Shown here: in pieces, positions 8,558 to 40,208 of the stretch
Position numbering within the stretch: position 1 is the first letter of the stretch
Layout: each line of letters starts with the position of its first letter
Source of the DNA: a virus
Lineage: Duplodnaviria; Heunggongvirae; Uroviricota; Caudoviricetes
DNA: 40,208 bases
Strand: one strand, 5' to 3'
Virus record (IMG/VR): IMGVR_UViG_2671180254_000014
Program-made: the position numbers and the translations under genes
Notes under the pieces: generated by a model
Told to the model about the DNA's origin: nothing
The model's input: only the letters and a program-made list of their open reading frames with translations
The model's database searches: none

Positions 8558-9043
8558 ATGAATCGCGCTTCCCTGATTACCTTAATACATGTCGCAAAAC
8601 GCGATCTACAGCTTGACCATGATACCTATACATCCGCGCTGCTGGCAGCCACCGGCAAATCCAGTTGCCGTGATATGTCACCCGGTGAGTTATCCCGCGT
8701 GCTGGATGTTTTCAAAAAACGCGGTTTTAAAGTGCGTCANNNNNNNNNNNNNNNNNNNNNNNNNNNNNNNNNNNNNNNNNNNNNNNNNNNNNNNNNNNNN
8801 NNNNNNNNNNNNNNNNNNNNNNNNNNNNNNNNNNNNNNNNNNNNNNNNNNNNNNNNNNNNNNNNNNNNNNNNNNNNNNNNNNNNNNNNNNNNNNNNNNNN
8901 NNNNNNNNNNNNNNNNNNNNNNNNNNNNNNNNNNNNNNNNNNNNNNNNNNNNNNNNNNNNNNNNNNNNNNNNNNNNNNNNNNNNNNNNNNNNNNNNNNNN
9001 NNNCAGCCCTGGATATGTCGGAACGTGCAGTGATGAGTTATGA
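8558..9043 (+). CDS. GemA-like protein (Mu gene 16 family), interrupted by N-run
   Basis: N-terminus MNRASLITLIHVAKRDLQLDHDTY... resembles Mu GemA; N-run 8740-9003 hides the middle, and the 3' end could be 9043 or 9083 depending on frame. Confidence 0.5.
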   Translation: MNRASLITLIHVAKRDLQLDHDTYTSALLAATGKSSCRDMSPGELSRVLDVFKKRGFKVRXXXXXXXXXXXXXXXXXXXXXXXXXXXXXXXXXXXXXXXXXXXXXXXXXXXXXXXXXXXXXXXXXXXXXXXXXXXXXXXXXXXXXXXXXSPGYVGTCSDEL

Positions 9044-31220: not shown

Positions 31221-32096
31221 TGTTTCATGTTGATAATAATTCCGGCGTGGCGAATATGCCTGCGCTGGCACCGGCGCAGAGTAATACCACCACCTGGTTT
31301 ACCGAAGGTGACGGACAAAAAGGTATCAGCTGGATTGGTCAGGACTGGCTGAATATTCTCCAGGCCGAACTGCTGAATATTCTGGCTGAAGCCAGTATTC
31401 AGCCGGATAAGGCGCAGTTAAACCAGCTTACGCTGTCCATTAAAGCCATTATCGCTGCGAATGCCTTTTCCCGGAAAAATAACCTGAAAGAAATTGCTGA
31501 TGCCGGTGCGGAGGCCCAGCGTCTGGCCCGTGGTTATCTTGGTCTGGGGACGCTTGCCACAAAAAACAGTCTTGGTCCCGCTGACGTTAATGCCCTGGCG
31601 AAGGATCAGAATCTCGCCGACCTGGAGAATAAGGGAACCGCCCGTAATAATCTGGATGTTTACAGNNNNNNNNNNNNNNNNNNNNNNNNNNNNNNNNNNN
31701 NNNNNNNNNNNNNNNNNNNNNNNNNNNNNNNNNNNNNNNNNNNNNNNNNNNNNNNNNNNNNNNNNNNNNNNNNNNNNNNNNNNNNNNNNNNNNNNNNNNN
31801 NNNNNNNNNNNNNNNNNNNNNNNNNNNNNNNNNNNNNNNNNNNNNNNNNNNNNNNNNNNNNNNNNNNNNNNNNNNNNNNNNNNNNNNNNNNNNNNNNNNN
31901 NNNNNNNNNNNNNNNNNNNNNNNNNNNGCCCGGAACATGGGAAAGCTGGGATCTGAATCTGGGGGGCGGCAATGTTCTTACCGGAATTAAAGTACAGGAT
32001 GTCGGTAAGAATACGGCAGATAACGTCGGCGGCGTGTATTACCGGCCGTTGCAGTATCTGTTAAATGGAGCATGGGTGACGGCTGCAAGTATATAA
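31220..32096 (+). CDS. tail fibre protein (constant N-terminal part plus currently joined variable C-terminus), interrupted by N-run
   Basis: N-terminal 148 aa to 31665, N-run 31666-31927, C-terminal 56 aa to TAA 32094-32096 in a different frame, so the gap length is not true. Confidence 0.65.
31531..31665 (+). repeat. left inverted repeat of invertible tail-fibre segment (at least 135 bp)
   Basis: Identical to the reverse complement of 33146-33280; ends at an N-run so true extent unknown. Confidence 0.85.
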
Positions 32097-32700: not shown

Positions 32701-33280
32701 TTATAACTGAGATACCGTAATCCATGTACCTCCGACTAATTTTTGCAGGGGTCTGAATGCTATAAAATCGTTTGAAGCATCAACTTTACTGTCAATCTGC
32801 AGGCCTGCCATAACATTACCGTACGCAGAGTAATATGCCCCACCGTACATTACCTGCCTGTTCTCTGCTCCCAGCCTGATATCCTGGATATATCGGGAAT
32901 CCGCATCCTGCTGTGTTATACCAGAAGTGATGTTTATGTCCTGCGTCCCGTCAAAGGGAACCCCATTAATATTTCTTGGGGTGGCGAGTCTATTCGCGGC
33001 AACGGCGGTGCCGTCCGATGGCAGAGCATTCGCCGCCCTGTTTACCGTTTCCCGTAAACCGACGTTATCGATAAAAGCCCCTTTATCCGGAATGTCTGCG
33101 CCGTTCTGCTCCCTGCGCAGGTAACGGTTATCACCTTCGCTTTTGCTGTAAACATCCAGATTATTACGGGCGGTTCCCTTATTCTCCAGGTCGGCGAGAT
33201 TCTGATCCTTCGCCAGGGCATTAACGTCAGCGGGACCAAGACTGTTTTTTGTGGCAAGCGTCCCCAGACCAAGATAACCA
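32701..33280 (-). CDS. alternate tail-fibre variable C-terminal segment (S'-like), 5' end in N-run
   Basis: Hand translation of minus strand from 33280: [44 protein letters not shown] (identical to residues 105-148 of the plus-strand fibre) then a divergent ~149 aa ending ...[10 protein letters not shown], stop at 32701-32703; not in ORF track because it lacks an ATG. Confidence 0.7.
33146..33280 (-). repeat. right inverted repeat of invertible tail-fibre segment
   Basis: Reverse complement identical to 31531-31665; abuts N-run 33281-33331. Confidence 0.85.
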
Positions 33281-33331
33281 NNNNNNNNNNNNNNNNNNNN
33301 NNNNNNNNNNNNNNNNNNNNNNNNNNNNNNN

Positions 33332-33834
33332 GTGCAGGATGTGAGCTGTTTTTCGAAGACAGAATAAGCGGTAAGACAAGGGAGCGTCCCGGACTTAAAC
33401 GCGCATTAAAGCGACTCCGGCCAGGGGATACCCTGCTGGTCTGGAAACTGGATCGCCTTGGACGCAGTATGCAGCACCTTGTCCTTTTAACAGAAGAACT
33501 CCGGCAACGCGGCGTTAACTTCCGCAGCATTACGGACAATATTGATACATCCACTCCCATGGGACGTTTCTTTTTCCATATAATGGGCGCGCTGGCGGAA
33601 ATGGAGCGGGAACTCATTATTGAACGTACACGCGCGGGTCTTGCTGCTGCCCGTGCTCAGGGGCGTCATGGCGGCAGACCTCAGAAACTGACAGAGAAAG
33701 AGCGGGAGCAAATCGCCCGTTTGCTGGCTAATGGCGAGTCCCGTAAACAAATCGCACTGATATTTGATATTGGCCTTTCCACCCTTTATCGTTATTTTCC
33801 TGCCTCACCAGCTCCGTCACCAAAAGTACCGTGA
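33332..33834 (+). CDS. gin: serine DNA invertase (Gin/Hin/Pin/Cin family), N-terminus lost in N-run
   Basis: In-frame translation from 33334 gives ...ELFFEDRISGKTRERPGLKRALKRLRPGDTLLVWKLDRLGRSMQHL... then GALAEMERELIIERT... and a C-terminal helix-turn-helix; catalytic Ser region falls in the gap. Confidence 0.85.
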
Positions 33835-33919
33835 CGCTTTTTTGAATTTCCGCAAAACACATATTTTTCAGCGGTCGCTATTCTGACTCTGTTTAATTCA
33901 GAAACAGGCAGAAAAGACG

Positions 33920-35974
33920 ATGTCAGACTCCAAGTGGAAAATGCTCTCCGCCATGCCCGGAGAGTTTTCAGTCAAGGTTGCCGGTGGCACGGTGGCATTT
34001 ATTGAAAGCCCTTTCCGCCCTTCGGGTAATAAAGGGGGGATCACCTTCGCAGACTGCGTGATCCGCTTCAGCACGAAAGAGCCATTATGGGTAATGCCGG
34101 TATCCGGTAATCCCAGTGCAGAAATCACCAGTTCAGGCGTGACTGGCATCATTCCAATCACATCTGACGTGGCCGGAACGCTCACGCCCTCCGACTGGAA
34201 TGCACCGGATAACGCCGGGCCTTCCGGTAGCACGAATGGCAGCAGTTCAGAGCCGGAATATTACTTTGTTGTCATTCTCGCGGGTCAGTCAAATGGCATG
34301 GCCTACGGCGAGGGGCTGCCGTTACCGGATTCGTTTGACCGCCCGGACCCACGCATTAAGCAACTGGCACGCCGCAGTACGGTAACGCCCAACGGTACGT
34401 CGTGTACATACAACGACATCATTCCGGCAGACCACTGCCTGCATGATGTTCAGGATATGAGCGGGATAAACCACCCGAAAGCTGATCTGGCAAAAGGCCA
34501 GTACGGGACTGTCGGTCAGGGGTTGCATATTGCCAAAAAACTGCTTCCCTATATCCCACAGAATGCCGGGATACTTCTGGTGCCCTGTTGTCGTGGCGGG
34601 TCAGCATTCACCACTGGAGCCGACGGCTCATTCAGTGAGGCCAGCGGTGCTTCCGCTGATTCTTCACGCTGGGGGGCCGGTAAACCTCTGTATCAGGACC
34701 TGGTAAGCCGCACCAAAGTCGCGCTGGCGAAAAACCCGAAAAACAAACTTCTGGCTGTGGTCTGGATGCAGGGAGAGGCAGACCTTGCCTCAGGAAGCCA
34801 GCAGCATAATAGTTTATTCACGGCCATGGTTCAGCAGTTCAGAACTGACCTGGCTCCGCTTGCTGCGCAGTGCGTGAGTGGAAATGCCACCACGGTGCCG
34901 TGGATTTGCGGTGATACCACGTATTACTGGAAAAACGCTGGCACCGATAAATATGAGGCAGTATACGGTGGCTACAAAGGCAAGGAAGCACAGAAAATTT
35001 TCTTTGTACCGTTCCTGACGGATGAGAATGGACAGAGCACGCCAACGAATGCTCCGGCGGAAGACCCGGATATTGTGGCTGTCGGGTATTACGGTGCAGC
35101 ATCCCGAACCCAGGGCAGTTTTGTTTCGACACAGCGTGACAGCCATTTCAGCTCATGGGCACGCAGGGGCGTCATTTCAGACCGTCTGGCCTCAGCTATT
35201 ATGCTCCATGCAGGGCGCACGGCTGAACTGATGCGCGGGCAGACCGTGACACCACCGGATGAGAAGCCGTCACCTGATACACCATCAAAACCGTCCACGC
35301 CACCCGCAGACACCACGACGATGAGTACGCTATTTGCTTACCGGGCATCTGAGTCTGAAGGACGGTTGACACCACAGGGTTGGGCTGCCGGAGGTGGCAA
35401 GGCTCAAATCGTGGATGATGCCGGAGCCAGCGGGGGTAAGGCAATGAAACTGACCAAGGAAACAGGAAGAGCCCCCTGGTACCTTGAGCATGATGCTGGT
35501 AATGGTGCGGACCTGCTGGGTAAAGGTGGTCTTGTCAGTTGTCGTTTTAAACTCGATGGCGCGCTTACGGCTAATCAGTACGCACTGGCGCTGTACTGGC
35601 CGGTTTCTGCCCTGCCGCAAGGGGTTACTCTGGAAGGAAATGCCGGTCATAACCTGCTGGCATCGTTCTACGTACAGAGCGATGCCACAGACCTTAACGT
35701 GATGTATCACAAAGGAAACACGGCGCAGAACACGAAGCTGGGGTCATTCGGCGCATTTAATAACGAATGGCATACGCTGGGCTTCCGTTTTGCCGGTAAC
35801 AACAGTATTGAGGTGACGCCGGTCATTGATGGTAAGGACGGGACACCATTCATGCTGTCGCAGTCTCCGGTCGGCACGTTTACGGCAGACAAGTTGCGCG
35901 TGACCGATATCACTAAAAATGCGACTTACCCGGTACTGATTGACAGTATCGTGGTGGAAGTGAATAACGCGTAA
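33920..35974 (+). CDS. SASA/SGNH-type carbohydrate esterase (sialate O-acetylesterase-like) with C-terminal beta-sandwich-like domain
   Basis: 684-aa ORF; GQSN motif at residues 122-125 (YYFVVILAGQSNGMAYGEG) and downstream WMQGEAD block; Ser/Pro/Thr-rich linker then ~200-aa Gly/Asn-rich C-terminal domain. Confidence 0.55.
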   Translation: MSDSKWKMLSAMPGEFSVKVAGGTVAFIESPFRPSGNKGGITFADCVIRFSTKEPLWVMPVSGNPSAEITSSGVTGIIPITSDVAGTLTPSDWNAPDNAGPSGSTNGSSSEPEYYFVVILAGQSNGMAYGEGLPLPDSFDRPDPRIKQLARRSTVTPNGTSCTYNDIIPADHCLHDVQDMSGINHPKADLAKGQYGTVGQGLHIAKKLLPYIPQNAGILLVPCCRGGSAFTTGADGSFSEASGASADSSRWGAGKPLYQDLVSRTKVALAKNPKNKLLAVVWMQGEADLASGSQQHNSLFTAMVQQFRTDLAPLAAQCVSGNATTVPWICGDTTYYWKNAGTDKYEAVYGGYKGKEAQKIFFVPFLTDENGQSTPTNAPAEDPDIVAVGYYGAASRTQGSFVSTQRDSHFSSWARRGVISDRLASAIMLHAGRTAELMRGQTVTPPDEKPSPDTPSKPSTPPADTTTMSTLFAYRASESEGRLTPQGWAAGGGKAQIVDDAGASGGKAMKLTKETGRAPWYLEHDAGNGADLLGKGGLVSCRFKLDGALTANQYALALYWPVSALPQGVTLEGNAGHNLLASFYVQSDATDLNVMYHKGNTAQNTKLGSFGAFNNEWHTLGFRFAGNNSIEVTPVIDGKDGTPFMLSQSPVGTFTADKLRVTDITKNATYPVLIDSIVVEVNNA

Positions 35975-35986
35975 GCAGGATAAAAA

Positions 35987-36019
35987 AATGCCGCCGGTAA
36001 GGGAAAACAAGAAACCGGC
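35987..36019 (-). terminator. hairpin with T-run on minus strand (GCCGCCGGT...ACCGGCGGC)
   Basis: 9-bp GC-rich inverted repeat with 15-nt loop just after esterase stop; flanked by A-runs on plus strand, so T-run follows on minus strand. Confidence 0.3.
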
Positions 36020-36118
36020 GGCAAAAAGATCGTTATATCCAAAGCAAAAAATGCAGTGCACCTTTTTACCTAACAGATATTACCGGTGTCAACACCATGT
36101 CAATAATTGGGAGGGATA

Positions 36119-36301
36119 ATGACATTTTTACAGCTTATTTTATTGTATTTCTGCACGGCAGTATGTGCGTTATATCTGGTGAGTGGTGGTTATAAGGCCA
36201 TCAGAAATTATGTTCGCCGCAAAATTGAGGACGCAGCAGCTGAAAAACTCAGTAAAACAGCGCAGGTAACTCCGCTCCCAAAAGACCCGACCCAGCCCTG
36301 A
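36119..36301 (+). CDS. small membrane protein (60 aa)
   Basis: GGGAGGG RBS 4-5 nt before ATG 36119; one N-terminal transmembrane helix then a basic tail. Confidence 0.4.
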   Translation: MTFLQLILLYFCTAVCALYLVSGGYKAIRNYVRRKIEDAAAEKLSKTAQVTPLPKDPTQP

Positions 36302-36336
36302 TTGCAGGGCTTTATTCCCGCATAAGGAGGATATAC

Positions 36337-36591
36337 ATGCCAGAAATTAAAGGCACCGTCACTGAAGACCTGGTAAAACAGGCACTGTATTCCGGTGAAG
36401 TAAATAAGTTGCTGAAAGCGCAGGTCCGCAAGGATTTTGAGGCACAAATCGACACTTACGTTGATGAAGTGCTGGCAAAACTTATTGGGCCAGCAGTTGC
36501 GGCCAGTGATGCTGATAATGAGCCGAAAACCGACGCGCAGCCAGAGCAACCAGACCCGGCTCAGCCCGGAACTGACAGTACCATGATGTAA
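36337..36591 (+). CDS. hypothetical protein with acidic Pro-rich C-terminus
   Basis: 84-aa ORF with AAGGAGG RBS 7 nt upstream of ATG. Confidence 0.5.
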   Translation: MPEIKGTVTEDLVKQALYSGEVNKLLKAQVRKDFEAQIDTYVDEVLAKLIGPAVAASDADNEPKTDAQPEQPDPAQPGTDSTMM

Positions 36592-36758
36592 CAATACAAA
36601 CCGGTGGTGTCCTCTGCCGGTTTGACACTAATGAAAACATCTTTGCCGCTATCCAGCCATATGTAATCGCTGGATAGTATTTCGTATTCAGAAATATAGC
36701 TGCTTATGGAGCAGTCAATCCTGCTTCCCCATCCGGGCAGGCAAATGAACCGGTATCA

Positions 36759-37052
36759 TTAGTCCGATTCACGCTTTTGTAGAATCGTTCCCAGAATGCT
36801 ATACAGCTCATTAGCCTGTTGCTCCATCATTGAGACGGAGGCTATACGGTGCAAAGTGATTTCAGGAGGTGGCACACCTCCATCTTCTTGCTGTGGAGGA
36901 AAAACATAAGATTTAATAAAAAAGTTGAAGCATATGAACTCTCCCGCACTCGAACTGTATTTGCAGGCATCTGAATAATCGGAAAAATAATCATTATAGA
37001 TTTCCGCATTTTCAATCATTTTTCGATTTCTCGTCGTTACATGATTGTCCAT
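36759..37052 (-). CDS. hypothetical protein in AT-rich segment, reverse strand
   Basis: 97-aa minus-strand ORF with TAAGAGG RBS; AT-rich composition unlike surrounding phage genes; convergent with the two small plus-strand ORFs. Confidence 0.45.
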   Translation of the reverse strand: MDNHVTTRNRKMIENAEIYNDYFSDYSDACKYSSSAGEFICFNFFIKSYVFPPQQEDGGVPPPEITLHRIASVSMMEQQANELYSILGTILQKRESD

Positions 37053-37244
37053 AGCAGCCTCTTACGCTGGCAATTAACCAATTGACTTCTATAAATTAGT
37101 TGATTTGTTTGCTTTGCGGTATTCAAATGTACAATCATTCAGCACTTATGCGTTACAGCACCGTTTAAAATTAGTGATCAAACTCATAAATTTTCGCTAA
37201 TGACATTTCGTGTTATTTGTTGTATCAATTAAATAAATCAAATC

Positions 37245-37261
37245 GATCGTTTTTGTCGATC
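37245..37261. promoter_or_regulatory. paired TCGATCG (Dam GATC) sites upstream of com-mom
   Basis: GATC at 37245-37248 and 37258-37261 (13 bp apart), ~50-65 bp upstream of com ATG; a third GATC at 37176-37179; Mu mom is regulated through upstream GATC methylation. Confidence 0.4.
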
Positions 37262-37308
37262 GATTGAGTGATAAAGATATCAACAACAAAGCAGGAGGTT
37301 ATGCGGCC

Positions 37309-37509
37309 ATGTATCGAAACATACGGTGCCGACATTGTAACAAGCTACTGGCACGAGCCAGCTTCAGTTATCTGGAAGTTAAATGTCCGCGCTGTAAAAC
37401 CCTCAATCAAATCACATCTCAGAGCGCCACAGAGCACCCCACATACACAAGGAAATCCTGTCGTGGGGAACAGAAAGCAAGTTACATCCCGTATCATCAG
37501 CACGCCTGA
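37309..37509 (+). CDS. com: Com, zinc-finger translational activator of mom
   Basis: [26 protein letters not shown] closely parallels Mu Com as I recall it (IRCKNCNKLL...RCPRCK); GCAGGAGG RBS; ATG 37309 inside ORF 37264..37509. Confidence 0.8.
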
Positions 37510-38200
37510 ACTTATTCACTATAACGACAATATCGTCGGTTATGGCTCCCGTGAGTTACGGGTTGAGACAATAAGTTGCTGGCTGGCCCGGCTGGTCGTC
37601 GTCAATAAACATTACAGCCATCGTTTCGTAAATAATTCCTACCTTCATCTGGGCATATTTTCAGAACGGGAGCTGGTTGGCGTAATGCAATGGGGTTATG
37701 CCCTTAATCCAAACAATGGTGCACGCGTCGTAACTGGCACGCAGAACCGCGAATATATGGAGCTTAACCGGTTATGGCTGCATGACTGTATGCCGAGAAA
37801 CTCCGAATCAAGGGCAATCAGTTACGCGCTCAAACTAATCAGACAACTTTATCCGCAGGTGCAGTGGGTTCAGTCGTTTGCAGATGAGCGTTGTGGCTGT
37901 CTTGGTGTCGTGTACCAGGCAAGCAATTTTGATTATGTAGGCAGTCATGAAACAACATTCTATGAACTTGATGGCGAGTGGTATCACGAGATTTGCAAGA
38001 ATGCAATCAAACGAGGAGGACAGCGAGGTGAACATCTGCGGGCTAATATCGACAGAGCCAGTGTTCATAAATTCCGTCAGTTTCGTTACATCCGGTTTCT
38101 GGACAAGAGAGCCAGAAAACGCCTTAACACAAAGCTATTCAAAGTCCAGCCTTACCCAAAACCACAAACAGTTAAAACTGGTTTGAAAGAGAGTGAATGA
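37463..38200 (+). CDS. mom: Mom-like DNA modification protein; start codon uncertain
   Basis: ORF 37268..38200 overlaps com 3' end in another frame as in Mu; GTG 37463 preceded by AAGGAAA is the only plausible start near the com stop; identity rests on synteny with com. Confidence 0.65.
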
Positions 38201-38332
38201 ACGCTTAAAAACTCATTCTAAAACTCAAAAGAAAAGCGCCGATTTAGTATCAAATAAGTTGCGTATCGGTGTTTTTCAGCGGTATCAAATGAAATGCAAA
38301 TCGGTATCAAAAAAATCGCCGCGCTATAATCA

Positions 38333-38517
38333 ACGCCACGGGGTTACGCCATGTCTGGCATTTACGCTGTACGGACACCTTAAAAGGTCCTTTACTGGAA
38401 AGTTATGAAATCTGCCCAATACCGGAAGTGGTGCTGGCAGCGCCAGAAGATTTGGTCGACTCTGCGCAGCGGCTTAGCGAGGTATGTCAGTGGCTGGCGG
38501 AAGCTGCACCGACGTAA
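38333..38517 (+). pseudogene. hyaF: 3' fragment of host hyaF (hydrogenase-1 operon), interrupted by the prophage
   Basis: Frame ending TAA 38515-38517 translates ...INATGLRHVWHLRCTDTLKGPLLESYEICPIPEVVLAAPEDLVDSAQRLSEVCQWLAEAAPT, matching my recalled HyaF C-terminus; lies directly upstream of appC; not in ORF track because it has no start codon. Confidence 0.55.
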
Positions 38518-38644
38518 AAAGACGGTAAGTATCGCTTTCAGTCTTATGAATATCGCAATCGGCGAATACCTCTGGTCGTAGAGTTTCAGGATAAAGAGGG
38601 AGATCTAACATTATCGGGTTATTTTTCTCTCTTCGCCTACAGGA

Positions 38645-40208
38645 GTGCGCATGTGGGATGTCATTGATTTATCGCGCTGGCAGTTTGCTCTGACCGCGCT
38701 GTATCACTTTTTATTTGTACCCCTTACCCTGGGGCTGATTTTTTTGCTGGCTATCATGGAAACCATTTACGTGGTCACCGGCAAAACAATCTACCGCGAT
38801 ATGACGCGCTTCTGGGGTAAGCTCTTCGGTATCAACTTTGCTCTTGGCGTGGCTACCGGCCTGACCATGGAGTTTCAGTTTGGTACTAACTGGTCATTCT
38901 ATTCCAACTATGTGGGCGATATTTTTGGCGCACCGCTGGCGATGGAAGCATTAATGGCCTTCTTCCTCGAATCCACCTTTGTCGGGCTTTTCTTCTTCGG
39001 CTGGCAGCGGCTGAATAAATACCAGCACCTGCTGGTGACGTGGCTGGTGGCGTTCGGTTCAAATCTCTCTGCATTGTGGATATTGAATGCCAACGGTTGG
39101 ATGCAATACCCGACCGGTGCGCATTTTGATATCGACACCCTACGTATGGAGATGNNNNNNNNNNNNNNNNNNNNNNNNNNNNNNNNNNNNNNNNNNNNNN
39201 NNNNNNNNNNNNNNNNNNNNNNNNNNNNNNNNNNNNNNNNNNNNNNNNNNNNNNNNNNNNNNNNNNNNNNNNNNNNNNNNNNNNNNNNNNNNNNNNNNNN
39301 NNNNNNNNNNNNNNNNNNNNNNNNNNNNNNNNNNNNNNNNNNNNNNNNNNNNNNNNNNNNNNNNNNNNNNNNNNNNNNNNNNNNNNNNNNNNNNNNNNNN
39401 NNNNNNNNNNNNNNNNNNNNTGGCGGCGATGGAAGGGGAGTGGCAAACGGAACCTGCTCCTGCACCGTTCCATGTGGTTGCCTGGCCGGAACAGGATCAA
39501 GAGCGTAACGCCTTTGCCATCAAAATTCCCGCGCTGTTAGGGATCCTCGCCACTCACTCATTAGATAAAACCGTGCCGGGTCTGAAAAATTTGATGGCTG
39601 AAACCTACCCACGCTTGCAACGCGGACGTATGGCCTGGCTGTTAATGCAGGAAATATCGCAAGGCAATCGTGAGCCGCATGTGTTGCAGGCATTCCGGGA
39701 ACTGGAAGGTGACCTGGGCTACGGCATGTTGCTCTCCCGCTATGCGCCGGATATGAATCATGTCACAGCCGCACAGTACCAGGCGGCGATGCGTGGCGCG
39801 ATACCTCAGGTTGCGCCGGTATTCTGGAGTTTCCGCATCATGGTGGGCTGTGGTTCCCTGCCGCTACTGGTGATGCTGATTGCGCTTGTCCAGACGCTGC
39901 GTGGCAAAATCGACCAGCATCGCTGGGTGCTGAAAATGGCGCTCTGGAGTTTGCCGTTGCCGTGGATTGCGATTGAAGCCGGGTGGTTTATGACCGAGTT
40001 TGGTCGTCAGCCGTGGGCGATACAGGACATCTTACCGACATACTCCGCGCACTCCGCTTTAACCACAGGACAACTGGCTTTCTCACTGATCATGATCGTA
40101 GGGCTTTACACCCTGTTCTTAATCGCCGAAGTCTACCTGATGCAGAAATATGCCCGTCTGGGGCCGAGCGCGATGCAGAGTGAACAACCGACGCAGCAAC
40201 AGGGGTAA
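38645..40208 (+). CDS. appC: cytochrome bd-II ubiquinol oxidase subunit I (AppC/CbdA), interrupted by N-run
   Basis: N-terminus [28 protein letters not shown]...[22 protein letters not shown] is cytochrome bd subunit I, AppC paralog rather than CydA; N-run 39155-39420; stop at 40206-40208. Confidence 0.85.

Follow-up and report, generated by a model that had tools for sequence, protein, structure and literature searches.

The window analysed here, the entire 40,208-nucleotide stretch of IMG/VR record IMGVR_UViG_2671180254_000014, contains a Mu-like prophage recognisable by its MuA (PF09299), MuB (PF09077), com (PF10122), Mom (PF25680) and invertase (PF00239/PF02796) markers. The prophage ends on the right near 38328, where it adjoins a cytochrome bd subunit I gene. 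Between the gin-type invertase gene and com lies a block of 3,474 bp (33835-37308), in a gap that measures only 94 bp in phage Mu (NC_000929, with gin up to 35673 and com from 35768). The invertase gene, called 'recombinase family protein' in the RefSeq annotation of an identical prophage, is ~70% identical in nucleotides to Mu gin (positions 33281-33331 within it were masked as N), and com-mom is 72% identical to Mu com-mom; in some relatives mom is replaced by a C5-cytosine methyltransferase. The esterase gene has a GC content of ~0.55, which drops to 0.33-0.40 in 36750-37200. Flanking repeats of ≥14 bp, direct or inverted, that would point to a transposon-like insertion were looked for and not found.

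Table 1. Features of the gin-com interval and its flanks (positions in the window)
Feature	Position	Strand	Remarks
gin-type serine invertase	33262..33834	+	Resolvase PF00239 (E 9e-42) and HTH_7; stop codon marks the block's left edge
Predicted NanS-p-type sialate O-acetylesterase, 684 aa	33920..35974	+	SASA PF03629, DUF6645 PF20350
N-terminal domain (structured aa ~7-79) and Ser/Gly linker	33920..34252	+	Occupies the place of DUF1737
Candidate sRNA, ~76 nt	35982..36057	-	Runs from 36057 to 35982; ends in the 35989-36023 hairpin and U7
Promoter-like element of candidate sRNA	36063..36092	-	TTGACA, 18 nt, TAAAAA
DUF1378 single-pass membrane protein, 60 aa	36119..36301	+	PF07125 (E 9e-32); phrog_494; RefSeq 'DUF1378 family protein'
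DUF826 soluble protein, 84 aa	36337..36591	+	PF05696 (E 6e-16); phrog_311; acidic Pro-rich tail
Two stem-loops	36597-36624, 36648-36678		Between the convergent DUF826 gene and reverse ORF; -32.1 kcal/mol together
Hypervariable slot	36621..37199		Different small AT-rich ORFs among lineage members
Reverse ORF, 97 aa (86 aa in RefSeq, from 37019)	36759..37052	-	AT-rich, orphan
com/mom upstream control region	37200..37308	+	Right edge of the block; 87-93% identity across the lineage, 233 genomes
com	37309-37509	+	PF10122; ATG at 37309 per RefSeq annotation of the identical prophage
mom	37463-38200	+	PF25680

An earlier, sequence-only reading of this locus had listed four ORFs and two hairpin regions; all four ORFs and both hairpins were recovered at the positions it gave. 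Its claim that the DNA between gin and com-mom is extra holds in alignments with Mu, D108 and SfMu. It had also taken the 684-aa ORF for an esterase, which the SASA domain and the matches to PDB 3pt5 and 6yp6 bear out, and one small ORF for a single-pass membrane protein, which proves to be the DUF1378 protein. Pfam and PHROG searches assign families to the esterase and to both small ORFs, and none to the reverse ORF. RefSeq labels the genes of identical prophages accordingly, as DUF6645, DUF1378, DUF826, Com and Mom.

The esterase

Judged from its sequence, the 684-aa product belongs to the NanS-p type of sialate O-acetylesterases. It is laid out as an N-terminal domain, a linker, a SASA/SGNH catalytic domain, a Pro/Ser/Thr linker and a C-terminal lectin-like DUF6645 domain, and it matches phrog_143 with E 2e-296. 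The SASA domain (PF03629) scores above the cutoff and residues 110-428 align with NanS (PDB 3pt5, E 1.8e-117). Two motifs described for NanS-p blocks (GQSN serine and R-x-S-H histidine; PMC10462455) are kept in alignments, as S124 and, in RDSH, H409. The lectin-like jelly-roll that characterises the NanS-p C-terminus is present as DUF6645 (PF20350, E 7e-68), with residues 469-683 aligning to the NanS-p C-domain (PDB 6yp6, E 7e-98). Membership of NanS-p in the strict sense appears incomplete, because the defining N-terminal DUF1737 (PF08410) is absent: a Pfam search gave no match to it at E ≤0.01. Precomputed Pfam lists hold proteins of 678-691 aa without PF08410 and of 647-650 aa with it.

The ribosome-binding site of the esterase gene is weak and no promoter stands out, with 4 promoter-like sites against 4.3 expected. 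The lambdoid nanS-p is a late gene that responds to induction, and activity on Neu5,9Ac2 or mucin glycans has been shown for lambdoid NanS-p alleles (PMC8065619).

The ~80-residue domain that stands in place of DUF1737 has an all-beta structure model, whereas DUF1737 is described as a helix and three strands. The domain is lineage-specific and looks cupin-like. Fold searches return generic cupins and connect it to none of the known decoration or tail-adaptor domains. A HMMER search against 1.84 billion representatives retrieved only fragments, one of them 30% identical; with clustering at 50% identity, full-length members are probably subsumed under representatives of the DUF1737 type. Searching a word index with the domain alone did not recover full-length proteins, and genome-contig scans with the domain alignment and with a distant relative (P0005) yielded no confirmed relative. 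The domain hardly varies between clusters that are 83-100% identical over the full length of the protein, and its swap boundary falls where homology to the lambdoid cassette ends.

A parallel exists in phage phi24B, where the NanS-p protein gp84 decorates the capsid through DUF1737 and is later self-cleaved, as seen by cryo-EM (bioRxiv 10.64898/2026.04.10.717836). By analogy, the esterase might be mainly displayed on the virion, anchored by its N-terminal beta-barrel to the Mu-like capsid or tail and acting on glycans of mucus or receptors as the phage infects, instead of supplying the lysogen with nutrients. This is a possibility to be taken seriously, yet on balance we doubt it. In its favour, it is exactly DUF1737 that is exchanged, the N-terminal domain co-varies with the phage backbone and is followed by a Ser-rich linker, and the protein has no signal-peptide-like sequence at its N-terminus. 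In three N-terminal variants the esterase gene lies 3' of a myovirus tail-fibre module: in the window type and in L043 an invertase accompanies that module, and in L040 the esterase gene directly follows a tail-fibre assembly gene. Display on the virion is harder to reconcile with the generic outcome of the fold searches and with the P2-like phages, which carry the DUF1737 version despite a different capsid, so that anchor and capsid type are not necessarily paired; dimerisation may, moreover, be all that small cupin barrels do.

A candidate small RNA 3' of the esterase gene

A probable sRNA gene is predicted on the minus strand beside the esterase gene. Like PasA and PasC, the candidate lies directly 3' of the esterase gene, is antisense to its neighbours and ends in a terminator with a U-tract. 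Its hairpin (35989-36023) has a 10-bp GC-rich stem and folds at -20 kcal/mol, with z -4.2 on the plus and -4.8 on the minus strand; the minus-strand fold (-20.1 kcal/mol) is followed by UUUUUUU. The hairpin at 35987-36019, regarded earlier as an island boundary, is better read as the putative terminator of this minus-strand sRNA.

The promoter-like element has counterparts elsewhere: TTGAC and A.AAA are invariant and equally spaced in PasA, PasC, the window, the lambdoid prophage L002 and the clade-2 Mu-like locus L004, while the flanks diverge. The promoter block of these five aligns without gaps and the same motif occurs in further variants. For this comparison the PasA/PasC coordinates of PMC8550237 (table S6) were mapped onto NC_011601. 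The body of the candidate is conserved in L002; it aligns poorly with the PasA/PasC bodies, and the published PasA seed is not evident. The Rfam models for Pas RNAs give no match in the candidate, and no STnc100/PasD-type RNA was detected upstream, unlike in the lambdoid nanS-p cassette. A match to Esr41 (RF02676) was rejected: it is terminator-driven and scores 22.2 bits against a gathering threshold of 102 (E 0.03-0.6). Esr41 is encoded on SpLE1 (PMC5286369), a locus unrelated to this one.

The DUF1378 and DUF826 genes

The DUF1378 ORF is preceded by GGGAGGG, has an alternative TTG start at 36107 that would give 64 aa, and encodes a protein 73% identical to the L002 copy. The DUF826 ORF is preceded by AAGGAGG; its product shares 70-72% identity with clade-2 Mu-like copies and 43% over 51 aa with that of L002. 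A PADLOC match of DUF826 to PbeC (E 0.0076, 12.9 bits) is not credible. Searching a phage collection by tblastn/blastn with DUF826 and the small-gene region found only two Mu-like inserts, the lambdoid DUF826 copies being missed because they are too divergent.

In lambdoid prophages DUF826 and DUF1378 lie between nanS-p and S (PMC10462455). In L002 the esterase-DUF1378-DUF826 trio is placed between the Q antiterminator/tRNAs and the holin. DUF1378 and then DUF826 follow the esterase on the same strand in L002 and, without exception, in those Mu-like relatives that are complete enough to show it (27 reach com). The small-gene cluster, previously proposed as a possible new module, thus consists of known nanS-p partners.

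The hypervariable slot and the com/mom control region

The two stem-loops downstream of DUF826 are probable terminators: they have z -4.9, no shuffle is equally stable, and the second is followed on the plus strand by a U-rich tract. Homology between the two cassette clades stops near 36620. The interval from DUF826 to com, which includes 109 conserved bp, ranges from 463 to 933 bp in related prophages, with at least five alternative contents; several of the alternative ORFs are frameshifted. The full 36592-37308 stretch is found in 18 of the 233 genomes that have the com-upstream segment. The reverse ORF, which appears to be the only ORF in truly variable cargo space, has no Pfam or PHROG match. 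A low-confidence model of it gives weak COMM/PC4-like fold matches, from which no function is drawn. A search of NCBIfam returned nothing useful.

A slot that is hypervariable and AT-rich, filled with small and often reverse ORFs, resembles known moron and defence hotspots, and it lies beside mom, an anti-restriction function. That the small ORFs and/or the reverse ORF form an anti-phage defence, anti-defence or toxin-antitoxin element is nevertheless very improbable. PADLOC gave no match for any protein of the block at E ≤0.001, the reverse ORF is without a family, some of its alternatives are broken by frameshifts, and DUF1378 and DUF826 are constant companions of the esterase, in Mu-like and lambdoid phages alike, and not hotspot cargo.

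To the right of the slot, two GATC sites (37245-37248 and 37258-37261) can be read within an inverted repeat of the com/mom control region. GATC sites likewise occur in the equivalent gin-com gap of Mu.

Distribution and mosaic history

Among 5,426 complete E. coli genomes, the com-upstream segment of this lineage is present in 233. The DNA of the esterase N-terminal domain occurs in a clade-1 form in 28 and a clade-2 form in 205; the sum, 28 + 205, equals the com-upstream count, a match of counts and not of genome sets. All IMG/VR loci found with the N-terminal domain (34/34) are Mu-like, and all 34 have the order tail-fibre genes, gin, esterase, DUF1378, DUF826, variable stretch, com, mom. 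The carriers found are E. coli and Shigella, E. coli O157:H7 genomes among them.

Over 34253-36247, a tract reaching from the catalytic domain into DUF1378, of which it covers the first half, the window is 91.8% identical to L002, a closeness (~92%) that implies exchange between prophages. Within the lineage the cassette diverges by up to 40-55% while com/mom remains 95-98% identical, which makes the acquisition old. The cassette is a mosaic whose N-terminal domain stays with the Mu-like backbone, and these comparisons indicate that the 3.4 kb block is fixed in a single lineage of E. coli Mu-like prophages and not a one-off insertion.

The sequence-only reading had proposed a recent cargo island (a moron) with its own signals, expressed in the lysogen, whose small genes formed a previously unknown module. 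The absence of the region from Mu, D108 and SfMu, the strong ribosome-binding sites of the small ORFs, the position at the genome end and the AT-rich orphan reverse ORF all speak for it. By its own standard, under which related Mu-like phages with these genes in this position would count against it, it is largely refuted: 34/34 IMG/VR relatives have them there, and the genome counts are those expected if no complete-genome member of the lineage lacks them. The age of the acquisition, a promoter signal not above chance and the Pfam identities of the small ORFs also oppose it, and we regard it as unlikely.

A probable NanS-p cassette in a transposable phage

The block is very probably the NanS-p cassette known from lambdoid (including Stx) prophages, here conserved as accessory DNA in a single Mu-like lineage of E. 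coli and Shigella. It would comprise a cytoplasmically made sialate 9-O-acetylesterase, the minus-strand sRNA candidate, the DUF1378 membrane protein and the DUF826 protein, followed by the hypervariable slot (here with the orphan 97-aa reverse gene), the intact com/mom control region and com-mom. By comparison with characterised NanS and NanS-p relatives, the esterase would de-O-acetylate sialic acids of mucin origin, Neu5,9Ac2 for example, and may meet its substrate when the phage lyses the cell and/or as a passenger of the virion. The swapped N-terminal domain would stand in for the capsid-binding DUF1737 and may tether or oligomerise the enzyme to suit a myovirus.

A broader and more speculative picture, which we hold only tentatively, is that NanS-p-type esterases are modular virion-carried enzymes with a swappable N-terminal anchor specific to the phage lineage. 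The cupin-like domain would then be an undescribed attachment module displaying a sialate deacetylase on a Mu-like capsid or tail, and the minus-strand element a new member of the Pas sRNA family, brought to its hosts by a transposable phage.

Studies and tallies of nanS-p alleles treat them as fitness factors of lambdoid/Stx phages that help EHEC to use mucin. The Mu-like lineage, O157:H7 strains included, adds an allele without the DUF1737 by which the family is described. Since DUF1737 is a capsid anchor according to the 2026 cryo-EM preprint and the swap falls cleanly at a recombination boundary, the pair offers a natural experiment on virion passengers versus lysogen enzymes. The conserved antisense promoter and terminator beside the esterase suggest that a Pas-type esterase-sRNA linkage reaches transposable phages. 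These findings extend current understanding and overturn nothing.

Comparison with known systems

The right end of Mu, D108 and SfMu has the same order as here, gin, com/mom control region with GATC, com and mom, at ~70-72% nucleotide identity; the difference lies in the length of the gin-com gap. The chromosomal NanS of E. coli (YjhS) carries a signal peptide and acts in the periplasm. Its catalytic domain can be aligned with that of the prophage esterase and both have the GQSN and SH motifs, but NanS is single-domain, whereas the prophage enzyme is phage-borne with added N- and C-terminal domains.

PasA and PasC, Hfq-dependent sRNAs of EPEC E2348/69 (EcOnc51/52 in EHEC), are likewise encoded next to a sialate esterase gene on the opposite strand. 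They measure 79-85 nt, against ~76 nt for the candidate, share its intrinsic terminator with a U-run, and have a promoter (TTGACA, 18 nt, xAxAAA) of the same spacing. The transcribed body of the candidate aligns poorly with theirs, and its status as an sRNA is a prediction.

The lambdoid NanS-p proteins form a further comparison. The DUF1737-type copies listed have the same SASA/SGNH domain, with 85-91% identity over the common ~85% of the protein, the same C-terminal lectin-like domain and no signal peptide, and their genes are followed by DUF1378 and DUF826 in the same order. The lambdoid cassette lies between Q/stx and the holin gene, whereas here it follows gin and precedes com-mom in a transposable Mu-like myovirus. 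What differs from the known cassette is the N-terminal domain, an unrelated all-beta domain in the place of the capsid-binding one, the candidate PasA/PasC-like sRNA and the hypervariable slot.

A nanS-p cassette in the interval between gin and com

The window carries a Mu-like prophage, marked by MuA (PF09299), MuB (PF09077), a gin-type invertase, Com (PF10122) and Mom (PF25680). The DNA past its right end is matched in almost all E. coli genomes and codes for cytochrome bd subunit I, the gene lying ~300 bp on. Identical prophages in other strains occupy different chromosomal sites, as expected from transposition. The island that the sequence-only reading took for inserted cargo is exactly the gap between gin and com, which measures 3,474 bp in the window as against 94 bp in Mu; near the island, nucleotide similarity to Mu picks up again only in gin and com-mom. 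No repeats bounding the island were found in the window. All four ORFs are present as originally described, composition bears out that the right part is AT-rich, and the two hairpin regions fold much more stably than shuffled controls (z -4.2 to -4.9). Masked runs of N fall in a tail-fibre gene, in the cytochrome bd gene next to the prophage and in the 5' part of gin, none of which can be judged for intactness.

The 684-aa protein is composed of a SASA esterase domain and DUF6645. It matches the solved structures of NanS (3pt5; aa 110-428, E 1.8e-117) and of the C-terminal lectin-like domain of NanS-p (6yp6; aa 469-683, E 7e-98), and retains the residues of the SGNH blocks, the GQSN serine and the R-x-S-H histidine. 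The small ORFs are DUF1378 (PF07125, E 9e-32) and DUF826 (PF05696, E 6e-16), and identical prophages in RefSeq have the same family names annotated on these genes. In a lambdoid prophage the same three genes lie between the antiterminator/tRNA region and holin, and DUF826 and DUF1378 ORFs have been described as separating nanS-p from the holin gene S (PMC10462455). Three of the four island ORFs are therefore a known nanS-p cassette, and the suggestion that the small genes form a new module does not hold.

Coordinates of features in the window and in related prophage loci
Feature	Sequence	Coordinates	Strand	Remark
Masked N run	window	8740-9003		264 bases
Masked N run	window	31666-31927		262 bases
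Masked N run	window	33281-33331		51 bases
Masked N run	window	39155-39420		266 bases
gin stop	window	33834		
gin-com gap (island)	window	33835-37308		
Segment shared with lambdoid prophage copy	window	34253-36247		91.8% identical
Terminator-like stem	window	35989-36023	-	U7 behind stem
Promoter-like motif	window	36092-36063	-	TTGACA, 18 nt, TAAAAA
Candidate sRNA	window	36057-35982	-	~76 nt
End of clade 1-clade 2 homology	window	~36620		
Hypervariable slot	window	36621-37199		
com start	window	37309		
Prophage right end	window	~38328		
Junction of right end and cytochrome bd flank	window	38328-38645		
STnc100/PasD-type sRNA	L002	5382-5574		138 bits
C5-cytosine methyltransferase gene	L004	6264-7316		PF00145
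C5-cytosine methyltransferase gene	L040	13785-14837		PF00145
Esterase gene	L043	6714-9074		

Conservation within the Mu-like lineage

Relative to Mu, D108 and SfMu the island is indeed extra DNA, but among members of its lineage it behaves as a stable component and not as transient cargo. When IMG/VR was searched with the esterase N-terminal domain, 34 loci came up, and in each of them the tail-fibre genes are followed by gin, esterase, DUF1378, DUF826, a variable stretch, com and mom; the same genes at the same place in related Mu-like phages are what the sequence-only reading had itself named as speaking against its proposal. The cassettes fall into two clades, between which the N-terminal domain is ~60% identical, the C-terminal domain 45-51%, and com and mom 95-98%. 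N-terminal DNA was looked for in 5,426 complete E. coli genomes: that of clade 1, the window type, is present in 28 and that of clade 2 in 205. The two figures add up to 233, as many genomes as have the lineage's com-upstream segment; the agreement is one of counts. Clade 2 takes in many O157:H7 strains, and also Mu-like phages inserted in Stx phages. Sp18, the Mu-like prophage of O157 Sakai and a possible member of the lineage, is reported to be intact and efficiently packaged (PMC2669165).

In some loci (L011, L012, L016, L019 and L024-L026) gin is cut down to a ~23-codon remnant, which places the esterase gene almost directly after the tail-fibre assembly gene. In L040, a more distant Mu-like prophage, gin is entirely absent.

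Mosaic origin and exchange of the N-terminal domain

The segment shared with the lambdoid prophage copy runs from the first catalytic-domain residue to the middle of DUF1378, and the 111 codons before it have no counterpart there. Lambdoid and P2-like alleles start with DUF1737, whereas Mu-like alleles have an unrelated segment of ~95 residues instead, nearly invariant among protein clusters with an overall identity of 83-100%. The AlphaFold model of this N-domain, for which the alignment was shallow (six sequences), is an all-beta barrel (mean pLDDT 74, core 80-90).

Cryo-EM and proteomics of phage phi24B show its NanS-p, gp84, decorating the capsid, held by DUF1737, and later self-cleavage has been proposed (bioRxiv 10.64898/2026.04.10.717836). 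The domain swapped in the Mu-like alleles is thus one known for virion attachment. Anchoring of the Mu-like esterase on the virion would have a parallel in gp84, and is less likely than not.

What recurs is the setting of the gene. In L040 the N-domain is 39% identical and sits on a 784-aa esterase encoded directly 3' of the tail-fibre assembly gene; in L043, a myovirus-type prophage, the esterase has a third, unrelated N-terminus and its gene comes after baseplate, tail-fibre and invertase genes. Together with the window type, these loci indicate that the esterase recurs behind the myovirus tail-fibre module, with interchangeable N-termini. Other, unrelated N-terminal segments are found on NanS-p-like esterases in L041-L043, and in L041 a remote form of the beta-barrel N-domain is present as a frame-disrupted copy.

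A candidate small RNA after the esterase gene

On the plus strand, A-runs lie on both sides of the first stem; read on the minus strand, the stem has the form of an intrinsic terminator. With the promoter-like motif upstream it delimits a candidate sRNA immediately 3' of the esterase gene. EPEC E2348/69 likewise has two sialate esterase genes that are each followed at once, on the other strand, by the gene for an Hfq-dependent sRNA, PasA or PasC (PMC8550237 table S6), and the window candidate resembles these sRNAs in place, orientation and promoter layout. When the minus strands of PasA, PasC, the window, the lambdoid prophage L002 and the clade-2 locus L004 were aligned, TTGAC and A.AAA were invariant at equal spacing in all five regions, and the transcribed bodies diverged. 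The promoter-like motif is also kept in other cassette variants. By analogy with PasA and PasC, the minus-strand RNA is a well-supported candidate.

The sole Rfam match, to Esr41, was below threshold, and this identity was dropped. An STnc100/PasD-type sRNA lies upstream of the esterase gene in L002; an Rfam scan of 33700-38700 in the window (E <=1) found none upstream of the esterase.

The variable slot and the com-mom control region

Homology between the two clades stops just past the first of two stem-loops after DUF826. The slot that follows is hypervariable across the lineage, and it alone in the region has the character of exchangeable cargo. The whole interval from DUF826 to com ranges from 463 to 933 bp and has at least five alternative contents, consisting of small AT-rich ORFs, often on the reverse strand and sometimes frameshifted. 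The 97-aa reverse ORF of the window is present in 18 of the 233 genomes, with homologues found in E. coli and Shigella only; searches for a family or defence-system match found none, and its low-confidence model has weak beta-beta-alpha resemblances. Slot equivalents were compared in L004, L009, L021, L023, L026, L033 and L038. Alternative contents include a 64-aa Cys-rich ORF (CxxC...CxxC) and an overlapping convergent pair of 66-78-aa (+) and 68-76-aa (-) ORFs, and several alternative ORFs are frameshifted.

The final 109 bp before com are conserved, with two GATC sites within an inverted repeat. The mom gene of Mu is under Dam-dependent control, and the two sites are consistent with such control having been retained. 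In L004 and L040 a 350-aa C5-cytosine DNA methyltransferase follows com instead of mom, an alternative anti-restriction payload at this site.

Proposed function and comparison with known systems

The region is most likely a phage-borne sialate de-O-acetylation module, and confidence in its identity and conservation is high. NanS-p enzymes strip O-acetyl groups off Neu5,9Ac2 and mucin glycans and allow lysogens to grow on them; in Stx phages nanS-p is a strongly induced late gene (PMC8065619). The Mu-like lineage has most likely carried the module for a long time and still swaps it with co-resident lambdoid prophages. On inspection the esterase lacks a signal-peptide-like N-terminus, so it would reach mucin sialic acids via lysis and/or on the virion. 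The benefit may be a metabolic one to the lysogen, or may fall to the virion in mucus. DUF1378 and DUF826 keep a fixed synteny with the esterase, among lambdoid as well as Mu-like phages, which speaks for their working with it.

No paper on nanS-p in a Mu-like phage was found in the literature searched. Set beside the known systems, this NanS-p cassette differs in being carried by a transposable phage and in the exchanged N-terminal domain of its esterase; a Pas-like sRNA candidate accompanies it.
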